Source: Mobula hypostoma
Lineage: Eukaryota
DNA length: 64,000 bases
Assembly (NCBI RefSeq): GCF_963921235.1
Contig: NC_086111.1
Span: 30,690,001-30,754,000, forward strand
Direction: 5' to 3'
Under the pieces are notes generated by a model. It was not told the DNA's origin. It made no database searches and saw only the letters and a list, made by a program, of their open reading frames with translations. Shown piece by piece: positions 1,919 to 54,139 of this stretch; within the stretch, counting starts at the first letter, position 1; each line of letters begins with the position of its first letter. The position numbers were made by a program, and so were the translations under genes.

Positions 1919-2121
1919 TGTTATGTTACTTCTATTTAAACATTCTGTGGATTAACAACAAAAAAAAATCATGTTCTGGAAGAATTAGAGAACTTTTATT
2001 TACAGAAATAAACAAACACTTCTTTACCCCCGCCACATGGTGAAACATACTAGCAAACCCCGCGCATGTTCAGTGCTCTCCAATCAGGAACTGGCGCATC
2101 ATTGCGCATGATATCACTACA
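1919..2121 (-). repeat. 3' LTR
   Basis: TGTTATGTTAC...GATATCACTACA; about 90% identical to 3348-3547 by hand count; AATAAA on the minus strand. Confidence 0.93.
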
Positions 2122-2134
2122 TCTTCCCTTCCTT
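2122..2134 (-). promoter_or_regulatory. Polypurine tract
   Basis: Minus strand AAGGAAGGGAAGA directly before the TG of the 3' LTR. Confidence 0.85.
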
Positions 2135-2361
2135 AAAAAGAAAAAATAAAGAACAACATTAATCAAAACAAATACATAATTCAACAAGTCTCTATCAGTC
2201 TCTCTGTGGGTTTACTTGTTATTATTTACAGGTTTTGTCTCATCTTCATCCTTTAACTGAATCTCTGAAGAATCACAACTTCTTTTCCTTAAAAAGAAAA
2301 ACAAATAACAACATTAACCAATAAACAAATCTATATCAGCTAACTGACACTCTGAAGTTGG

Positions 2362-2529
2362 CTCTTCACTATCAGTGTCATAACTCTTCTTGTGCTTCTT
2401 TTTCTTCTCCTTTTCTGCTTTAAGTTTTTCTAAACTTTTTTGTATACTCTCACATGCCTCCTGGTTAGAATCTGGAATTTCAGGCAAGCAGTTCACGCTA
2501 TCCTCCTCAGCAATATCCTTCCCTGCTTC
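2362..2529 (-). pseudogene. SLU7: Probable captured SLU7 fragment
   Basis: EAGKDIA...[23 protein letters not shown] resembles recalled SLU7 EAGKEIV...EKLKEEKKKKKKKKKKHRKSSSDSDDEE with similar spacing; partly low complexity. Confidence 0.55.
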
Positions 2530-2544
2530 TGTTTGGACTGTATC

Positions 2545-2697
2545 TTTCTTAATTCCTTCCACTTCCATTTGTGATGAAATACAAATCTTCTTTTCTTCAT
2601 CTAATTCATTCATTAACTGTGAAATCTCTTTTTTATGCTGAGACTTCATCATTTCAATAAAACTTCTCAATTCCTTCATTTGTGCTTTCACTTCTTG
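2545..2697 (-). pseudogene. SH3KBP1: Captured SH3KBP1 (CIN85) C-terminal coiled-coil fragment
   Basis: [50 protein letters not shown] versus recalled human [50 protein letters not shown]. Confidence 0.83.
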
Positions 2698-2890
2698 CTT
2701 ATACTGTGCCCACTGCGAGCGTTCTTGCTCTAGATGGTGATTAGACTGAATCTCATATTCTCTCAGTCTCTTTCATCATCGCTTGCATTGAAGCAACCTC
2801 TTCCTGCCATTGCTTTTTCACATCATCAATTGCCCCCTGTTTGGTCGTCTCAGACACTGCAGTTACTGCTTTTATATTCTCCATGTCAGC
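2698..2890 (-). pseudogene. RABEP1: Captured RABEP1 (Rabaptin-5) N-terminal coiled-coil fragment
   Basis: [63 protein letters not shown] versus recalled human AEMENIKAIATVSENTKQEAIDEVKRQWREEVASLQAVMKETVRDYEHQFHLRLEQERTQWAQY; one 2-nt deletion. Confidence 0.88.
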
Positions 2891-3248
2891 ATTTTCATAA
2901 AGCACATCTGTATAAAATTCCTCACGTTCATCTTCAATCACAGCATTTACTTGTTTCATTTCATTTTCCTTCCTTCTACTTCTACAACAGTGCGAAAAAT
3001 GATTAATCTTACCACAGCTGTAACAAAGTTTGCCATATCCGAAACACTGATTTGGACAGTATTCCCATGCACAGCAATCACATGACTTTTTTTTTTCAAA
3101 TGCCGTCTTGCTTTCTGTTGGTTTTGTCCGCTTTTCTATCAGCTAAGGTGGCCGATACATATATCTCAAACTGTTGCTTGAATATCCTCCAATTCTCAGC
3201 TTCATAGCCAGTCAGCTGCAATTTTTGTGGGGGTTGTAAACTTTCCAT
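2891..3248 (-). pseudogene. Internally deleted Gypsy gag (N-terminus plus CCHC zinc knuckle)
   Basis: MESLQPPQKLQLTGYEAENWRIFKQQFEIYVSAT, then after a frameshift QCFGYGKLCYSCGKINHFSHCCRS (C-x2-C-x4-H-x4-C). Confidence 0.88.
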
Positions 3249-3333
3249 ATTACTGAATACCATTCAAACTTGTTTCCTCTTTTCTTTTGGATTATCTTCG
3301 ATTTTTGATTCTCCTGTATTATTCTTCCAAAAG

Positions 3334-3347
3334 CACTTCTAACACTA
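3334..3347 (-). promoter_or_regulatory. Primer binding site (tRNA-Leu type)
   Basis: Minus strand TAGTGTTAGAAGTG directly after the 5' LTR; two mismatches to TGGTGTCAGAAGTG, the complement of the tRNA-Leu(CAA) 3' end. Confidence 0.8.
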
Positions 3348-3547
3348 TGTTATGTTACTTCTATTTAAACATTCTGTGGGTTAACAACAAATAATCATAT
3401 TGTGGAAGAATTAGAGAACCTTTATTTACAGAAATAAACAAACACATCTTAACTCCTGCCACATGCTGAAACATACTGGCAAACCCCGGACATGCTCAGT
3501 GCTCTCCAATCAGGAACCGGCACATCATTGCACGTGATATCACCACA
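3348..3547 (-). repeat. 5' LTR
   Basis: TGTTATGTTAC...GATATCACCACA followed by TSD ACAGG. Confidence 0.93.
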
Positions 3548-5099
3548 ACAGGTTTCAATGAGATCCTCCTTCATTCTTCTGAACTCCTGTGAGTAGAGGC
3601 CCAAAGCCATCAAACACTCAATATACATTATCCCTTTCATTACCGGGATCATTCTCATGAAACTCCTCTGGACTCTCACCAATGTCAGCACATTGTTTCT
3701 TAGATAAGGGGCAAAACTACATACAATTCTCCAAGTATTGTCTGATCAATGCCTTATAAAGACTCAGCATTACATCCTTGCTCTTGTATTGTAGTCCTCT
3801 CAAAATGAATACTAACATTGCATTTGTCTTCCTTACCACCAATTCAAACTCCAATTCAACCTTCAGGGAATACTGCATGAGGACTCCCATGTCCCTTTGC
3901 ATCTTTAACTTCTGAAGTTGCTCCCTATTTAGAAAATAGTCTATACCTTCATTCCTTCTATTAAAGTGAATGACCATACATTTCCCTACACTGTACTCTG
4001 TCTGCCACTTCTTTGCTCATTCTCCTAACCTGTTTAAGTCCTTTTGCAGACTCTCTACTTTCCCAAAACTACCTGCCCCTCACCTGTCTTCATATTGTCC
4101 ACAAGCCGGGCCACAAGATCAGCAATTCTGTCATCCAAATCATTGATATATGACAGACAAAGAAATGGTCCCAACACTGACTCCTGTAAAACACGTCACT
4201 GGCAGCCACCCAGAAAAGGCCCTCTTTATTCCCATACTTTGTTTTCTGTCATTCAGCTAATCTTCTAGCCATGCTGGTATCATTCCATACCATGGTAATA
4301 CCATGTGCTCTTATCTTGCTCAGTAGCCCCATGTACAGTACTTGGTCAAAGGCCTTCTGAAAAGTCAAGTAACCGGCACCCACTGACACTCCGTTTTCTG
4401 TCCTACCTGTTATTTCCTAAAAGAATCCCAACAGATTTGTCAGATGAGATTTCCCCTGAAGGAAACCATGGTGACTTTGGCCTGTTGTATCATTTCCTTC
4501 CAATTAGCCTGAAACATCATCCTTAGTAATAGGCTCCAGTACCTTCCCAACCACTGAAATTAAGCTAACTGGCCTACAATTTCCTGTCTTTTGCTAGTCG
4601 AATATAACATCAATACGAATACAAAAAAACTTCTATGTTTCATATACACTCAGTGGTCACTTTATTAGGTACACCTGTACACCTACTCATTAATCCAAAT
4701 ATCTAATCAGCCAATCACGTGACAGAAACTGTATACATAAAAGCAAGCAGACATGGTCAAGATGTTCAGTTGTTGTTTCGACCAAACATCTGAATGGGGA
4801 AGTAATAGGGTCTAAGTGACTTTGACCATGGAGTGGTTGTTGGTGTCATGAGGAGGTGGCTGGGAATGGACCCAAGTACAAGACACAGACACTGAAATAC
4901 TAGGGACAGGACTAGGATACAGGCTAAGGGCAAGGACATGGACACGAAAACCGGGAACCCGGAACAGGACTGGACAAGAGAGCTAGGAGCCCGGGCTTGG
5001 ACTCCGAGCCAGAGACTGGACAAGGACCCAGTACCTGGGTCTTGCCTCTGGCTCGGACTCCAGAACTAGGCAAGGACGAGGCTTGGCAGGCAGGCAGGA

Positions 5100-5403
5100 T
5101 GAGGTTGGAGTCTTCAGGCTTGAGGCTTGAGGCTAGAGACTTGAGGCGAGGCTTGGCAGGAGGCAGGAGGCTAGAGACTTGAGGCGAGGCTTGGCAGGAG
5201 GCTAGAGATTTGAGGCTAGGCTTGGCAGGAGGCTAGAGACTTGAGGCAAGGCTTCAGGCTTGAGGCTAGGCAGGAGGCTGGAGTCTTCCGGCTTGAGGCT
5301 AGGCAGGAGGCTGGAGTCTTCAGGCTTGAGGCTAGGCAGGAGGCTGGAGGCTTCAGGCTTGAGGCTAGGCAGGAGGCTGGAGTCTTCAGGCTTGAGGCTA
5401 GGC
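5100..5403. repeat. Tandem array, ~33-bp unit AGGCTGGAGTCTTCAGGCTTGAGGCTAGGCAGG and variants
   Basis: At least four near-identical copies visible; they produce the repetitive ORFs 5202-5471 and 5241-5615. Confidence 0.9.
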
Positions 5404-5449
5404 ACGGTACTCCTGGGCAGGGCGCGGATCACCACCTGACAGAGGCATG

Positions 5450-5885
5450 GAACAGGAAGGGACAGAACCAACCACAGGTAACGGCAAGACGGCCTGGCTT
5501 ACCGGACGGAGGCAAGGGACAGGAAGTGACAGAACCAACCACAGGTAATGGCAAGACGGCCTGGCTTATCCGATGGAAGCAAGGGACTGGAAGGGACAGA
5601 ACCAACCGCAGGTAACGGCAAGACGGCCTGGCTTATCTGGGCGGAGGTGAGGGACAGGAAGGGAGCTAGGTACAGGGCGGCTCCAGGACGAGACTGCAGG
5701 CGAGGTGAGGCGAGAGTTACCAGCAAGACAAGGCAAGGCTTCAGGTAATGCAAGGTGAGACGTGAACTTCAGCTGAGGCGATAGTTACCGGCAAGACAAG
5801 GCAAGGCTTCTGGCAAAGCAAGGCGAGACGAGAACTTCAGCCGAGGCGAGAGTTACCGGCAAGACAAGGCAGGGCTTCAGCCGAG
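5450..5885. repeat. Two ~66-bp tandem arrays, about three copies each
   Basis: GACAGAACCAACCACAGGTAACGGCAAGACGGCCTGGCTTA x3; GAGTTACCGGCAAGACAAGGCAAGGCTTC x3. Confidence 0.85.
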
Positions 5886-6300
5886 GAAACAGGAGGCAGA
5901 GGAAGGGATACAAGGAGTAGGACAAGAACAATCCAGCAGCCACACCCTGGTCTCTGAAGGTATTTATGCAGCCAGCCCCAACGAGCATCAGCTGCCTCAA
6001 TTAGAGCTCAAGAAGAACAGAAACAGGGTAGACAGGAAAACCTGGAGCAAGGGTCAATGGACCAGACTGTGAACTGGAATACGGACTTCACGGACAGGAT
6101 CATGACAGTTGGTGCCTGATAGGATGGTTTGAGTATCTCAGAAACTGCTGATCTCCTGAACTTTCATACACAATAGTCTCTAAAGTTTACAGTGAATGGC
6201 GTGAAAATTAAAAAAACGTCCAGTAAATAGCAGTTCTGTGGGAAAAATGCTTTGTTAATGAGAGAGATCAGAGGAGAATGGCCAAAATGGTTCAAGCTGA

Positions 6301-15080: not shown

Positions 15081-16680
15081 TCAAGTCAAGTCAAGTCAGG
15101 AGAAGTTTATTGTCATTTAACTGCATACATGCATACCATATAATGGATATAGAAATGAGACAACGTTTCTTCAAAACAGGGTGTAAAGCTTAGTAGTACA
15201 CATAACACACAATAACTTCTGAAGGTAAGAATACAAGCTACACATAAATAACAAACTAATATGCATTAATATTAAAATTTGTAAGGTGCAGATCAGATTA
15301 GCTAGTGACACTTCGAATCACTAGCTAATCTGAGTTCAGAAGTCTAATTGCCTGGAGGAAGAAACTTTCTCATCCTGACCATTCTTGTTTTTATGCATTG
15401 TAGTCTCCTGCCTGGTGATGTAACATCAAAGAGGATGCTGGATGGATGCATAGGAACCTTAATAATACTAAGAACCCTGCATATGCAGTGCTCCTGATAA
15501 ATGTCCCAGTGGATGGTAGGATGCCAGGGAGACCCCTATGATCCTCACTGTCCTTTGTTGGAACTTCCGGTCCAACGCTTGACTGTTCCCATACCAGATG
15601 GAGATACAATTTGTCAGGACATTTTTAATGGTGCTCCTGTAAAATGCAGTTAAGATGAGGCGGGGGGGGAGGGGATGTGGGAGCTTTGCTTGCATAAAGC
15701 CCGGTTTATACTTCTGCGTCAACGCGTCGCCGTAAGGTCTGCGTTGCCGCAAACCCTACGCAAAGCCGACATGGAACCCTACGCGAGAGCTTGCGTCGCT
15801 GTGACACGCACCGCTCCCAAAATGTAACCGCGCGTCGCGGCAACGCAGAACGCAACAACTGTGATTGGTCCACCTGGTAGCGTCGCACGTCATCCTACGC
15901 TGCAATAGCTTCCCATTGGGCGACTGAAGGGCAGGGAAGGAACTCTGGCTGCAATGCTTTCCATAAAGCTTTACAGACCTCCGAAATTATGCAGGACACA
16001 TTTTACACGAAAAAAGACGCTCACGACTTGTTTACCCCAAGGCTACCACGACCGTGAAGCCTTGTGCGGGCAGGTGAGTGCGCATGAGTGACGTGCGCGA
16101 ATTGCCGAGTGACGCAGACAAACCAAGGCACAAGTATAAATGCTCACAACGCGCGTAGGCCACTTGCGTAGGTTACGGCTTCCAGTTAACGCAGAAGTAT
16201 AAACCAGGCTTCAGTCTTCTTAGAAAGTAGAAGTGTTGCTCTGCCTTCTTGTTCAGGGAGGTGATATTAAGTGACCAAGTGAGGTCATCCATGATGAGAA
16301 CTCCCAGGAACTTGGTGCACTTAACTCTCTCTGTGGAGGAGCCATGTATTCGCAGAGAGGGATGGTTTGTCTGCAGCTTCCTGAAGTCCACAATGATCTC
16401 CTTTGTTCAGGTTTAGCTTTTACTTCTCACATCAATCCACCAGAGGCTCCACTTCCTCTCTGTACTCCGTCTCATCATTCTTGATAAGGCCAACCACTGT
16501 TGTCTCGTCTGAAAACTTGATAACACAATTTGAGCTGGATCTTGCAACACAGCCGTGCATCAGCAGTGTGAACAGCAGCAGGCTGAGTTTGCAGCCGTGG
16601 GGACCACCAGTGCTCAGCGTAATGGAATGAGAGACATTGCTGCCCACATGGACTAAATGTGGCCTTACTGTTGAATGTCC
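15081..16680 (-). mobile_element. Rex1/Babar LINE, split by a Harbinger MITE
   Basis: (CAAGT)n tail; RT peptides STGGPHGCKLSLLLFTL...IKFSDETTVVGLI, KFLGVLIMDDLTWS and AFYRSTIKNVLTNCISIWYGN. Confidence 0.85.
15698..16210. mobile_element. Non-autonomous PIF/Harbinger element, copy 1
   Basis: TIRs AGCCCGGTTTATACTTCTGCGT and ACGCAGAAGTATAAACCAGGCT; 3-bp TSD TAA/TCA; transposase fragment on the minus strand. Confidence 0.88.
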
Positions 16681-24028: not shown

Positions 24029-24786
24029 CTCTTGTCTTTGATGTTCTTATACATTGATATAAAAGATTCTCATATCTCGTAAGAAGAGACTGCAGCTGCA
24101 CTGTCTTGACCCAAAACACCAGCCATCCCTTTGTAGCCATAAACTTGCTGAATTCATCCAGCAACTTGCTTTTTGCTTTCATGCATAATTCCTCACTGAA
24201 GCTGATGAAGATTTGTTCCATAATTATATCTAACAGTTATAGATGTTGAGAGCCTTCCTTTCCCTCCTCATCTTCTTTCTCTCTCTTCCAACAATTTCTC
24301 CCACTCTGCTTGCCCTCTAATCATTCTCCAAGTCATTCATTCCTAGAGAAATGCTGGCTAATGTCTTCTTGCCTAATTCATGAAGAAGCTTTGAAGTCAG
24401 CACAAAATGCAACATTCCCTTTAAAATAATAAAGCTTCAAAGTACTCTGCAAAGGATTTAAGAAAATTGCAAAAGCACAGCCAGAGCCAGTAGAATTCAA
24501 TAAGCAACTGACTTCCAGGTGGATAATAATTCCTCTGATAGATCTGTTGTGTACCCTTCCAGCTATTTAATGTGTGTTTATCTGTGAAGATATCAAAGAC
24601 TACTGGATGTCTGACCTCCAAAATGGCAGTGATAATGTAGGCACCATTACCTACCCAGTTTATATTTCTGATGGACATTGGCTGTGAAAGCATATGTACC
24701 CTCACCAATGTTGCAAACGGTGTGATTCACATACTATTTTGAAGTCTTCATGTCATCAGTAGCACACAGAATATGAGCATGACTAA

Positions 24787-25281
24787 AGGCTGATTTATAC
24801 TTGTGCGTCAACTCGACGCAGTAGGTACGGCATTGCTGTGAACCCTACGCAGAGCCTACGCAGATCCCTACGCCGTAGCCCTGACACGCACCTCTCCCAA
24901 AATGTAACTAGATGTCGCGGCAACGCAGACCGCAACAACTGTGATTGGTCCGCCTGGTAGCATCGCATTTCCTCCTACGCTGCAATAGCTTCCCATTAGG
25001 CAACTAAGGGGCAGGAAAGGAACTCTGGCTGCAATGCTTTCAATAAAGCTTTACAGACCTCCGAAATTATGGAGGACACATTTCGCTTTTACGAAAATAT
25101 ACGCTCGCTTTAAACTTGTTTACCCCGAGAAAGACTACCATGACCATAAAGCCTTGCGCGGGCAGGTGTGTGCGCATACGCGACGCAGACACTCCAACAC
25201 ACAAGTATAAATGCTCACAACGTGCGTAGGCCGCTTGTGTAGGTTACGGCGTCAATTTGACGCACAAGTATAAATCAGCCT
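24787..25281. mobile_element. Non-autonomous PIF/Harbinger element, copy 2
   Basis: Perfect 25-bp TIR AGGCTGATTTATACTTGTGCGTCAA; TSD TAA on both sides. Confidence 0.92.
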
Positions 25282-27305
25282 TAAGGCATGTAGTGTGTTG
25301 TTATGTGTCTCGATGTCCACTTGATGTATGTAGTCATGATTTTTTAAAACATAAGTTATACTTTTGAAGCATTTTTCCTTCTCTGTCACATGATAAACAA
25401 ATTTCGTTATTTTCAATTATTTATTTGCAATCCCTAAAAACATATTATAATTAAAGCCTTGTTCTCTTAATTATCTTTTAATTCATGACAATTAAAAAAA
25501 ACATTCTGACAGTAACAAATGTATCTGTGTCACATGCAATAATTATTGTATATTGGGGTGCATATGGTAAATGTTACAGCCATGATACATGCAATAAATA
25601 TTGTACATTGTGGCACATGCTGGATACTTTGTATATTGTGGTGCATGCAATGAATATATTGTACGATAAGACACACAATAAATATTGAATTTTATGCCAC
25701 ATACAATAAATTAGAGTTTACAGAGTTATTGGATCCTTGGTCTAAACTGAATATATTAATGATAGCCCTCGTGAAATAAGCAAAAATGACTAAAGTTAGT
25801 ATATTTAATTCAAGAAAGCAAATAAGTTACGGTAATATTACAAAAAGTCATGATAGTTTAAAGTTGTGGATTGCATAAATTGGGAAACTGTGTACACAAT
25901 AATGACAAAAATAGCACATTAGAAGGAATTCTTAAAGCACTGAACTGGAGGCTCACCAGACATTGAACCACAGAAGGTGATAGAAGGATCAAAGACCAAA
26001 ATCCTTTTCAAAGAGATGTGGTTTAACATGTGTTCTGAAAAATAAGATAAGTTTAAGGAGTACCAAAGGTTCAGGAGTTGAAACTGAAAGCAAGGAACCA
26101 ACGGTGGTGTACTTAAATTCTCCAGAAGTGGAGATATTTCAGAATTATTGAGAAGGAGGAGGTTTCACAGATGGGATGAGATCATTGAGGGATTTTAAAG
26201 GAAGAAAAATTTAAAACTGAGGTATTGCTTAATCTGGAACCAATAAAGTTGGTGATGTGTGAACAATTAATAGTGTGAATTAGAACATGGGCAACTTTGA
26301 TGATAGAAAACTTGAGTTTTAAAACCTTGAATATTACATGAGGTAAGAGAAGTGGGAGAGGTAAACAGATGCAAAGTCAAGGGTGAAGAGGTGTTGTTAT
26401 AATGTTGCAAGCAGGAATAGGATGTTGATGGTAGCATACATAGAGCTGAAGATGAATAAGAAATATAAAAATCAATAATTAAAAATATGATTAATTATGT
26501 TAATTACATGTCTATCTAAAATCATGCAATTAGACTTCAAAATTGCATTTTATTGAATAAATTGGCAAATAAATTATTTGATGAATTTTGATCATATGCA
26601 AGAAAAGCTACAAAAAGCGCACAAAAACTAAAGAATTTAACTGTAATATAGGCATACATGTGAATAAATATATTATGTAAATGCAGATGGGCATTTTTAT
26701 TAGATACTTAGTATTGACAGATTTTCAGTGTACTGTGGACACAAAGAGTGTGAAATATGCTTTTGTCAACCTTACTGCTTCTTTATAGATGTCACTCTGG
26801 ATACAACATTTTTCCAGCTGTGGAACAACTGGATTCAATGTTCCTGGAGTAGCCATTTCATTTACACAATGCAATGCAGAATATGAAGTAATACTCTACA
26901 TTTGTCTTGTTAAGTGCAGTGTGAATAACATTCAAGAATCACAACTCCATCCAGGACAAATACATTGCTTTGATTGGAATTCCATCCACCGCACTAGATA
27001 CTCACACTTCTAATGCACCACGGTTGCAATATGTACCATCTACTACCAACCCTCAACGACCTTCAAAACATCTGCAATGAATCAAAAAGACAGCACACTA
27101 CCATTTCCTCAAAAGCAATAAATTAACTTTTTACCTGAATTTTATTTCTATGAGCCTGAATCTTGAAAAGTTAAGAAATCACAGTACTACCCCACATGTA
27201 TTCCCATCCAATATACTCAATTAAAGAGTTACAACCTTTCAAGTTCCAGGAATTCTAGTTTGTGCATTCTCTTCTTATAACTGAATTCTCCATTAAGGCT
27301 CAGAG

Positions 27306-52890: not shown

Positions 52891-53437
52891 GGCTGTAGTT
52901 ATCTTTACCAAGGATAGTTATTGCTTTCCTTTTCTCTTTGATCCTCTTGAGCATTTCAGCATGAAGCTCAATGGCTCCTGCTACACCCTGCTTTTGGTCT
53001 CTGTCAAACCTGGCTGTGCTAGGAATTTGGGTAAAGGAGCCACCATTAATCCTAACCCTTTGCCGTCACAATGCAGGCTGATGTCTTTCAACTGCTTCCA
53101 GTCAGCTCTTCCAAATTCAGCAGTACAATGTGCACATTGTGCAAGCACAAAGTATTACGTCGTAGAACTGCCAGCTTTGGATTGCTGATCAGTGCTGGCC
53201 TGACTGTGTGCACTTTACTGAGGAGGACATCGGCCTTAACAAGAGCACAAATGCCTTGTTTATAGAAGATCCTGTACAGTGACAATGACAACCATTTGTG
53301 CCTCTGTTGCTCCCACTCGGCTGTCCATCCGTGTACTCATTGAAGGGAGTCTGTTCAATGAGATGGACACTACACTAACTTTACAAGGGATAATCTTCAG
53401 GCTGTCACTAAGGTGTGAAACAGTGAGGTGTTCCTTA

Positions 53438-53931
53438 AGGCTGATTTATACTTCTGCGTCAAATCGACGCCTTACGTACAGCGTAGCCATGAACACTACG
53501 CAGAGCCTACACGTATCCCTACACCGTAGCCTGACGCGCACCTCTCCCAAAATGTAACTACGTGTCGCGGCAACGCAAACCGCAACAACTGTGATTGGTC
53601 CGCTTGGTAGCATCGCATTTCCTCCAATGCTGCAATAGCTTCCCACTGGGTGACTGAAGGGCAGGGAAGGAACTCTGGCTGCAGTGCTTTCCATAAAGCT
53701 TTACAGACCTCCGAAATTATGGAGGACACATTTCGCTTTTACGAAAAAAGACGCTCGCTTTAAACTTGTTTACCCCGAGAAAGACTACCATGACCACGAA
53801 GCTTTGCACGGACAGGGGTGTGCACATGCGCGACGCAGACACACCAACACACAAGTATAAATGCTCACAACGTGCGTAGGCCACTTGTGTAGGTTACGGT
53901 GTCAATTTGACGCAGAAGTATAAATCAACCT
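53438..53931. mobile_element. Non-autonomous PIF/Harbinger element, copy 3
   Basis: TIR AGGCTGATTTATACTTCTGCGTCAAAT; TSD TTA; minus strand [32 protein letters not shown] (Harbinger transposase fragment). Confidence 0.92.
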
Positions 53932-54139
53932 TTACTGTTTTCTTGATTTGGGCATAGTTAACCTTTCCTTTGGCACCACTTGTTCAGTTTTCTAGAGGTT
54001 ATTGTGGGAGAGCTGCCTTCATTCAAGCTGTAGCAGTTAATGAAGAAGGCTCTATATTATCATCTCCCTGCTGCTCAGTTCTCACAAATTGAGAATATAT
54101 ATATGCAAGAAAGGACCACCCAAGAGAACTGGATGACTC

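Follow-up and report, generated by a model that had tools for sequence, protein, structure and literature searches.

Positions 2698-2890 of the window (the whole 64,000-nt stretch of Mobula hypostoma NC_086111.1 analysed here, position 1 being its first letter) raise the question of how coding sequence resembling RABEP1 came to lie within a retrotransposon. The first-pass annotation had proposed, from the letters alone, an intron-free RABEP1 coiled-coil fragment, interrupted by a 2-nt deletion, inside an LTR element. A minus-strand frame at 2753-3139 encodes a CCHC zinc knuckle, behind which it matches the Pfam family Rabaptin (PF03528, E=8e-21, 74.7 bits against a cut-off of 26.7). We located host RABEP1 via its C-terminal family PF09311 on contig C71 and then examined the 200 kb upstream. 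The locus contains PF09311 and later PF03528 exons as well, and its peptide matches Narcine RABEP1 (P0020) at 93%. Window 2894-2686 aligned to this gene at 197/211 nt (93%) with one 2-nt gap, covering the last 125 nt (nt 80-204) of a 204-nt exon (G000:C71:53174546-53174343) and the first 86 nt of a 161-nt exon (G000:C71:53165279-53165119). We take these to be exons 3 and 4, as in the human gene. The exon junction lies at 2770/2769, and the host intron of about 9.06 kb is absent from the window copy.

The Rabaptin domain above the Pfam cut-off and the host RABEP1 locus as best match make the piece RABEP1-derived; a generic coiled coil or a TE protein is ruled out by the PF03528 match and the alignment to host exons. 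The proposed 2-nt deletion was recovered as the gap in the host alignment (2768/2767, just inside exon 4). Since a gap at or near this spot occurs in only 4 of 61 copies, the deletion is not a trait of the family.

The piece lies, as proposed, inside a dead Ty3/Gypsy-type LTR element of 1.63 kb on the minus strand (1919-3547), with the 5-bp target duplication ACAGG on both sides (3548-3552 and 1914-1918). The 5' LTR (3348-3547; 200 bp, TG...CA) differs from the 3' LTR (1919-2121; 203 bp) at 9.5%. Directly after the 5' LTR there is a decayed stretch (3334-3347), which reads TGGTGTCAGAAGT in other copies and, by its position, is a putative primer-binding site. A leader and gag remnant with the CCHC zinc knuckle follows (2891-3333; 83% to the full-length copy L164), with about 470 nt missing near 3125. 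The element contains no protease and almost nothing of pol. It ends in an integrase-tail remnant and a duplicated 3' end (2122-2366) with the frame stop at 2316-2314 and a polypurine tract at 2140-2122. The duplicated 3' end of the three-gene group described below (window 2321-2122) consists of a polypurine-tract-like stretch, an integrase-tail repeat and the true tract.

The RABEP1 reading was correct but incomplete, for the cargo is a mosaic of three genes, with spliced SH3KBP1 (2696-2544) and SLU7 (2529-2363) next to the RABEP1 piece. The 153 nt following RABEP1 hit both SH3KBP1 proteins of sharks and rays and the coiled coil of CIN85 (PDB 5abs, E=7.6e-13). They represent three exons of the host gene on contig C18, encoding the C-terminal coiled coil, joined without introns at 2633/2632 and 2569/2568 and identical at 149/153 positions. 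Over its final 167 residues, host SH3KBP1 agrees fully with a Mobula hypostoma record (P0005). A further locus (L070, G000:C2:30664721-30664834) showed a 58% match to part of SH3KBP1 and is perhaps an exon of its paralogue CD2AP.

After a short integrase-tail remnant (2526-2543, reading VQTE) comes a third segment of 167 nt (2363-2529). Protein searches with this segment gave no identification (0/103 candidates; Atlas matches all under 0.9), and its assignment to full-length-element sequence was rejected, as it had no match in 14 full-length loci. In contigs of two sequencing runs the segment was preceded by a different upstream flank, which led to SLU7: the flank occurs once in the genome, on contig C21, in a host exon matching human SLU7 (PDB 5xjc, E=3.4e-18). 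The element holds parts of three SLU7 exons, a lysine-rich C-terminal piece, without the 3.0- and 5.7-kb introns, and both splices are also present as joints in the run contigs. The first junction is at 2509/2508; the second falls inside a 15-nt deletion of the window copy. A SLU7-only family with longer 5' sequence was considered and rejected, the upstream 29-mer being single in the genome, at the host gene. The RABEP1, SH3KBP1 and SLU7 donors lie on three contigs other than that of the window. The host SLU7 intron of the second junction (L183:3310-8985, G000:C21) starts with GC and is a GC-AG intron.

Among 119 loci scanned, 92 carried cargo and 77 were distinct, dispersed over many contigs. 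By coarse architecture, and in numbers that mirror the queries used rather than true frequencies, the 77 comprised 43 with RABEP1, SH3KBP1 and SLU7, 15 with SH3KBP1 only, 10 with a RABEP1 piece whose exon 4 harbours an inserted piece of SH3KBP1, 6 with RABEP1 and SH3KBP1, 2 with RABEP1 only and 1 with SH3KBP1 and SLU7. Exon junctions lay in a single alignment in every copy with both sides (61/61 for RABEP1; 15/15, 74/74 and 71/71 for SH3KBP1; 43/43 and 44/44 for SLU7), and no intron sequence was found in the cargo pieces of any copy examined. The suspicion that the RABEP1 fragment is multicopy proved right: at least 86 non-host loci match PF03528. These copy numbers are lower bounds (88 scored of 264 candidates, and 40 of 93 for the SLU7 piece). 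The 5-bp flanks agreed at 4-5 of 5 positions in 16 of 20 complete copies.

Full-length relatives are common and fall into two LTR types, and some share the LTRs of the cargo elements. They encode RVT_1, RT_RNaseH, Integrase_H2C2 and rve in that order; the protease was recognized by its motif rather than by a profile match. The domain order protease-RT-RNase H-integrase between LTRs identifies the parent as a Ty3/Gypsy LTR retrotransposon, which we assume, from the look of gag and RT, to belong to the Mag clade. One full-length copy (L164, around 3240-4100) has about 860 nt between RNase H and integrase that are absent in other copies and are probably a later insertion. In a scan for other cargo, 100 loci (some overlapping) chosen by RT start or integrase tail gave 86 with none, 13 with SH3KBP1 and 1 with RABEP1; the unexplained gaps in these loci mostly resemble later insertions.

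We therefore read the window element as a dead, non-autonomous Ty3/Gypsy copy in which pol was replaced by spliced RABEP1, SH3KBP1 and SLU7, with gag under selection and the host peptides serving as open-frame filler (probability about 0.85). The spliced origin of the cargo, the replacement of pol, the shared words at the joins and the dispersal with target duplications are all seen directly in the copies. Capture from genomic DNA is ruled out by the spliced junctions. The pieces are not LINE-made processed pseudogenes either, as they end in element sequence or in other cargo, and the only duplication is one of 5 bp, outside the LTRs. By the route we propose, host mRNAs would have been co-packaged with element RNA, the reverse transcriptase likely switched templates at short shared words, and the defective genomes were likely copied in trans by enzymes of full-length relatives.

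RABEP1-only, SH3KBP1-only, two-gene and three-gene forms coexist among the 77 loci. As judged from their sequences, this coexistence of single-gene and mosaic forms shows stepwise assembly. Separate RABEP1-only and SH3KBP1-only families probably came first and then recombined with each other; SLU7 gain and protease loss would be later steps. SLU7 appears to have been added last, because it occurs only beside SH3KBP1, and the flank upstream of it is found nowhere but at the host gene. The single-gene families have one LTR type, and most mosaics have that of the window. Median LTR-LTR mismatch was 7.0% in three-gene copies (n=27), 8.0% in SH3KBP1-only copies (n=6) and about 10% in RABEP1-only (n=2) and nested (n=5) copies; median mismatch to host exons was 5.7% (three-gene), 4.5% (SH3KBP1-only) and 9.7% (RABEP1-only/nested). 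These values make the family an old one, and young copies were not encountered. Hypanus sabinus (P0018) and Hemitrygon akajei (P0019) have the same RABEP1/SH3KBP1 join as the window family, so the captures probably predate the split of these stingrays from the Mobula lineage. P0003 is an SH3KBP1-only form.

The cargo substitutes for pol between the RT start and the integrase tail. Each switch point lies at a word common to both parents (alignment overlap 4-20 nt), and the SH3KBP1-to-SLU7 join is bridged by the short element remnant. We found 12 junction types at two or more loci, and each of the 12 stays in the gag frame, in all of its copies or in the majority of them. Counted in the main bins, the in-frame fractions were 50/52 for RABEP1/SH3KBP1, 45/45 for gag/RABEP1 (protease lost), 41/42 for SH3KBP1/SLU7, 39/39 for SLU7/tail, 16/16 for SH3KBP1/tail, 13/13 for protease/RABEP1, 9/10 for RABEP1/tail, 9/9 for SH3KBP1/RABEP1, 6/6 for RT/SH3KBP1, 4/4 for an internal deletion, 2/2 for an alternative SH3KBP1 start and 2/3 for RT/RABEP1. 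Tail-to-tail joins at or past the element stop codon or within the duplicated 3' end were excluded from the 12 types; two such bins (30 and 9 copies) are mostly out of frame.

By comparison, single-copy deletions within element sequence were in frame in 5 of 20 cases (4/9 in cargo copies, 1/11 in cargo-free copies). Among single-copy joins involving cargo the rate exceeded chance, with 6 of 9 in frame. The shared types differed from the deletions (Fisher, p=3e-5) and from all single-copy events together (11/29; p=3e-4). Shared words alone would give in-frame joins with a chance of 0.38-0.44 (4-8 nt) or 0.54-0.58 (9-10 nt, few cases), so that 12/12 has P=2e-5 to 2e-3. Several searches were protein-based, which may have biased the sample toward open frames.

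Off-frame readings of the cargo run into stops in 6/6 cases; the likely basis of the frame rule is that off-frame cargo would stop translation early. Because shared joins are in frame and gag is depleted of amino-acid changes (see below), translation through the whole element was likely a requirement. Source elements may have needed to be translated from gag as far as the stop close to the 3' LTR, whether for protection from nonsense-mediated decay or for packaging of translated RNA. Retroviral RNA is reported to become a target of nonsense-mediated decay when it contains early stops (PMC2925335), which may hold here as well. Ty1 is reported to package RNA of the translating pool, although its Gag shows no cis preference for the RNA encoding it (PMC3945221); this would count against a frame rule based on packaging.

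To compare selection on the two parts, cargo was aligned in 76 copies to host exons, with CpG sites removed and L121 dropped for poor alignment. Singleton changes comprised 297 nonsynonymous, 17 stop and 94 synonymous, an N/S of 3.2 against a neutral expectation of 2.7-3.3. Unfixed changes common to at least five copies comprised 22 nonsynonymous, 1 stop and 10 synonymous, a ratio of 23:10 that, with only 33 shared variants, did not differ from the singleton 314:94 (p=0.39). For gag, the reference was a real copy (L164), 7 full-length copies of the window's LTR type were used in the comparison, and variants confined to 45 protease-less copies at 15-85% were counted. Amino-acid changes were depleted among them (N:S 12:18 versus 333:95 for singletons, p=2e-5). 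Apparently, gag rather than the cargo was constrained while the protease-less group spread. These ratios suggest purifying selection on gag in the three-gene group, with the host peptides looking like passengers. It is possible that some group-confined gag alleles were imported from unsampled full-length lineages.

Of 53 copies, 27 are frameshifted at a run of A in gag that precedes the cargo. The state of this run shows no link with relatedness among 42 copies (permutation p=0.48), and of 64 cargo-free copies 32 are shifted at a comparable A-run in RT; the shift therefore looks like repeated slippage, although the frameshift may also have been inherited among copies. Six of the 7 gag indel classes seen in at least three copies shift the frame, and none of 39 scanned copies had an open frame running all the way from gag to tail. 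The window copy is no functional retrogene: it is deleted and frameshifted, and cargo changes are neutral.

The frame data could also be read without any selection on translation. In-frame joins would then be a by-product of codon-patterned shared words, and spread would follow from shortness plus intact LTRs, primer site and polypurine tract. The high in-frame chance of 9-10-nt words and the gag A-run shift in half of the copies agree with this, as do, in one survey, the ready proliferation of non-autonomous copies and the parental frame of 14 of 17 young fly cases (PMC5131818). We nevertheless consider it unlikely, given that P for 12/12 is at most 2e-3 even with a chance of 0.6, that single-copy deletions are mostly out of frame and that gag of the three-gene group shows purifying selection. 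Conversely, the coils themselves may have been useful, if fusion to Gag provided a means of self-association, through the RABEP1 coil, the CIN85 coil and the basic helix of SLU7, and aided entry of Gag and RNA into helper particles. All three pieces are in sense orientation, in frame and helical or charged; shared cargo indels are multiples of three (2/2); and the SH3KBP1 piece, which matches a solved coiled coil, is retained in 75/77 loci despite other deletions, a figure inflated by SH3KBP1- and SLU7-based searches. This idea is rather improbable in view of the missing amino-acid constraint on the cargo, which was moreover cut and swapped repeatedly, and A-rich coding sequence (36-46% A) with its many shared words alone favours such cargo. 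A broader version, that a vertebrate Gypsy lineage repeatedly trades pol for host coiled-coil exons stacked in frame on a selected Gag, the fusion aiding particle assembly, is just as speculative. If true, it would mean exon shuffling driven by element-level selection, and rays would have at hand a supply of small RNAs directed at host genes.

Use of the copies by the host, through small RNAs tuning RABEP1, SH3KBP1 or SLU7 (as the first-pass annotation had envisaged for RABEP1) or through one copy turned gene, is the reading we doubt most. It would draw on the median identity of 90-96% between copies and host exons, and on an analogy with LTR-captured PxyMasc copies, which are reported to make silencing RNAs (PMC9674220). 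It would also draw on contigs of runs from four organisms that cover chimeric joins, three of them bridging RABEP1/SH3KBP1 or SH3KBP1/SLU7 with long sides; these strandless contigs are only guessed to be RNA, and the runs, not on record as such, contain intron and repeat sequence as well. The neutral singleton changes in the cargo, the lack of a complete gag-to-tail frame among the 39 copies and the decayed window copy all speak against host use.

Retroviral oncogene transduction entails a template switch onto host mRNA; the resulting genome carries a gag fusion, is defective and depends on a helper. By its proposed route, the ray element would share these features with such transduction and with the HERV-K capture of FAM8A1 (cited in PMC5131818). 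It differs in its carrier, a gag-pol-only Gypsy-type element with no env in the full-length copies examined, and in that no benefit of the cargo protein was detected. The LTR-mediated retrocopies of Tan et al. (2016; Genome Res 26:1663, PMC5131818) include zebrafish cases, multi-gene chimeras (among them a mouse locus chimeric from four genes) and secondary copying. As in those retrocopies, partial spliced mRNA stands in place of part of the element ORF, spans exon-exon junctions without introns and is flanked by discontinuous element sequence; short shared words mark the switch points, and copies with identical switch points at dispersed sites point to secondary, non-autonomous copying. Unlike those retrocopies, the ray RABEP1 piece is present at 86 or more loci, recombination has taken place among several subfamilies, the shared joins are all in the gag frame with gag constrained (the supplementary tables of Tan et al. 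may hold comparable frame data), and the chimera is common to more than one ray family. Maize Bs1, as summarized in the same source, resembles the ray element in two respects: it is an LTR element carrying exon-derived pieces from three host genes that are not linked, and its copies share switch points. Bs1 has 1-5 copies and one of three pieces out of frame, whereas the ray family has all three in frame, far more copies and no sign of domestication. The Pxyfem copies of Plutella xylostella, reported to make silencing RNAs against the parent gene (PMC9674220), are likewise multicopy LTR-captured spliced host-gene fragments; for the ray copies, silencing RNAs are a hypothesis.

The capture route itself is likely already known (Tan 2016; maize Bs1), mostly from low-copy cases. 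In a literature with limited coverage of subscription journals, we found no paper on the ray family, on shark RABEP1 retrotransposons or on Mobula or stingray LTR retrocopies. In the ray family the intermediates survive in many copies, which allows measurement of the capture order, of the frame rule and of how selection on gag compares with that on cargo. What determines the spread of LTR elements with host cargo becomes testable from sequence. The concern that such fragments could be mis-annotated was well founded: the Hemitrygon akajei record, which consists of element, RABEP1 and SH3KBP1 sequence, is named 'rab GTPase-binding effector protein 1-like', and stingray 'RABEP1-like' gene models can be transposon copies.

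Other repeats were observed in the window. A LINE-like remnant with RT-like frames surrounds the element (1790-1913 and 3553-4590), with further copies around 49.1-50.3 kb and 60.4-61.9 kb. A 1.26-kb stretch at 4844-6107, with a TGTCATG start, a CATGACA end, a 5-bp duplication (GTTGG) and tandem repeats of 33, 67 and 68 nt, is likely a solo LTR. A 0.5-kb element at 24778-25290 with 46-nt terminal inverted repeats is likely a MITE, with relatives near 15694-16218 and 53433-53939.
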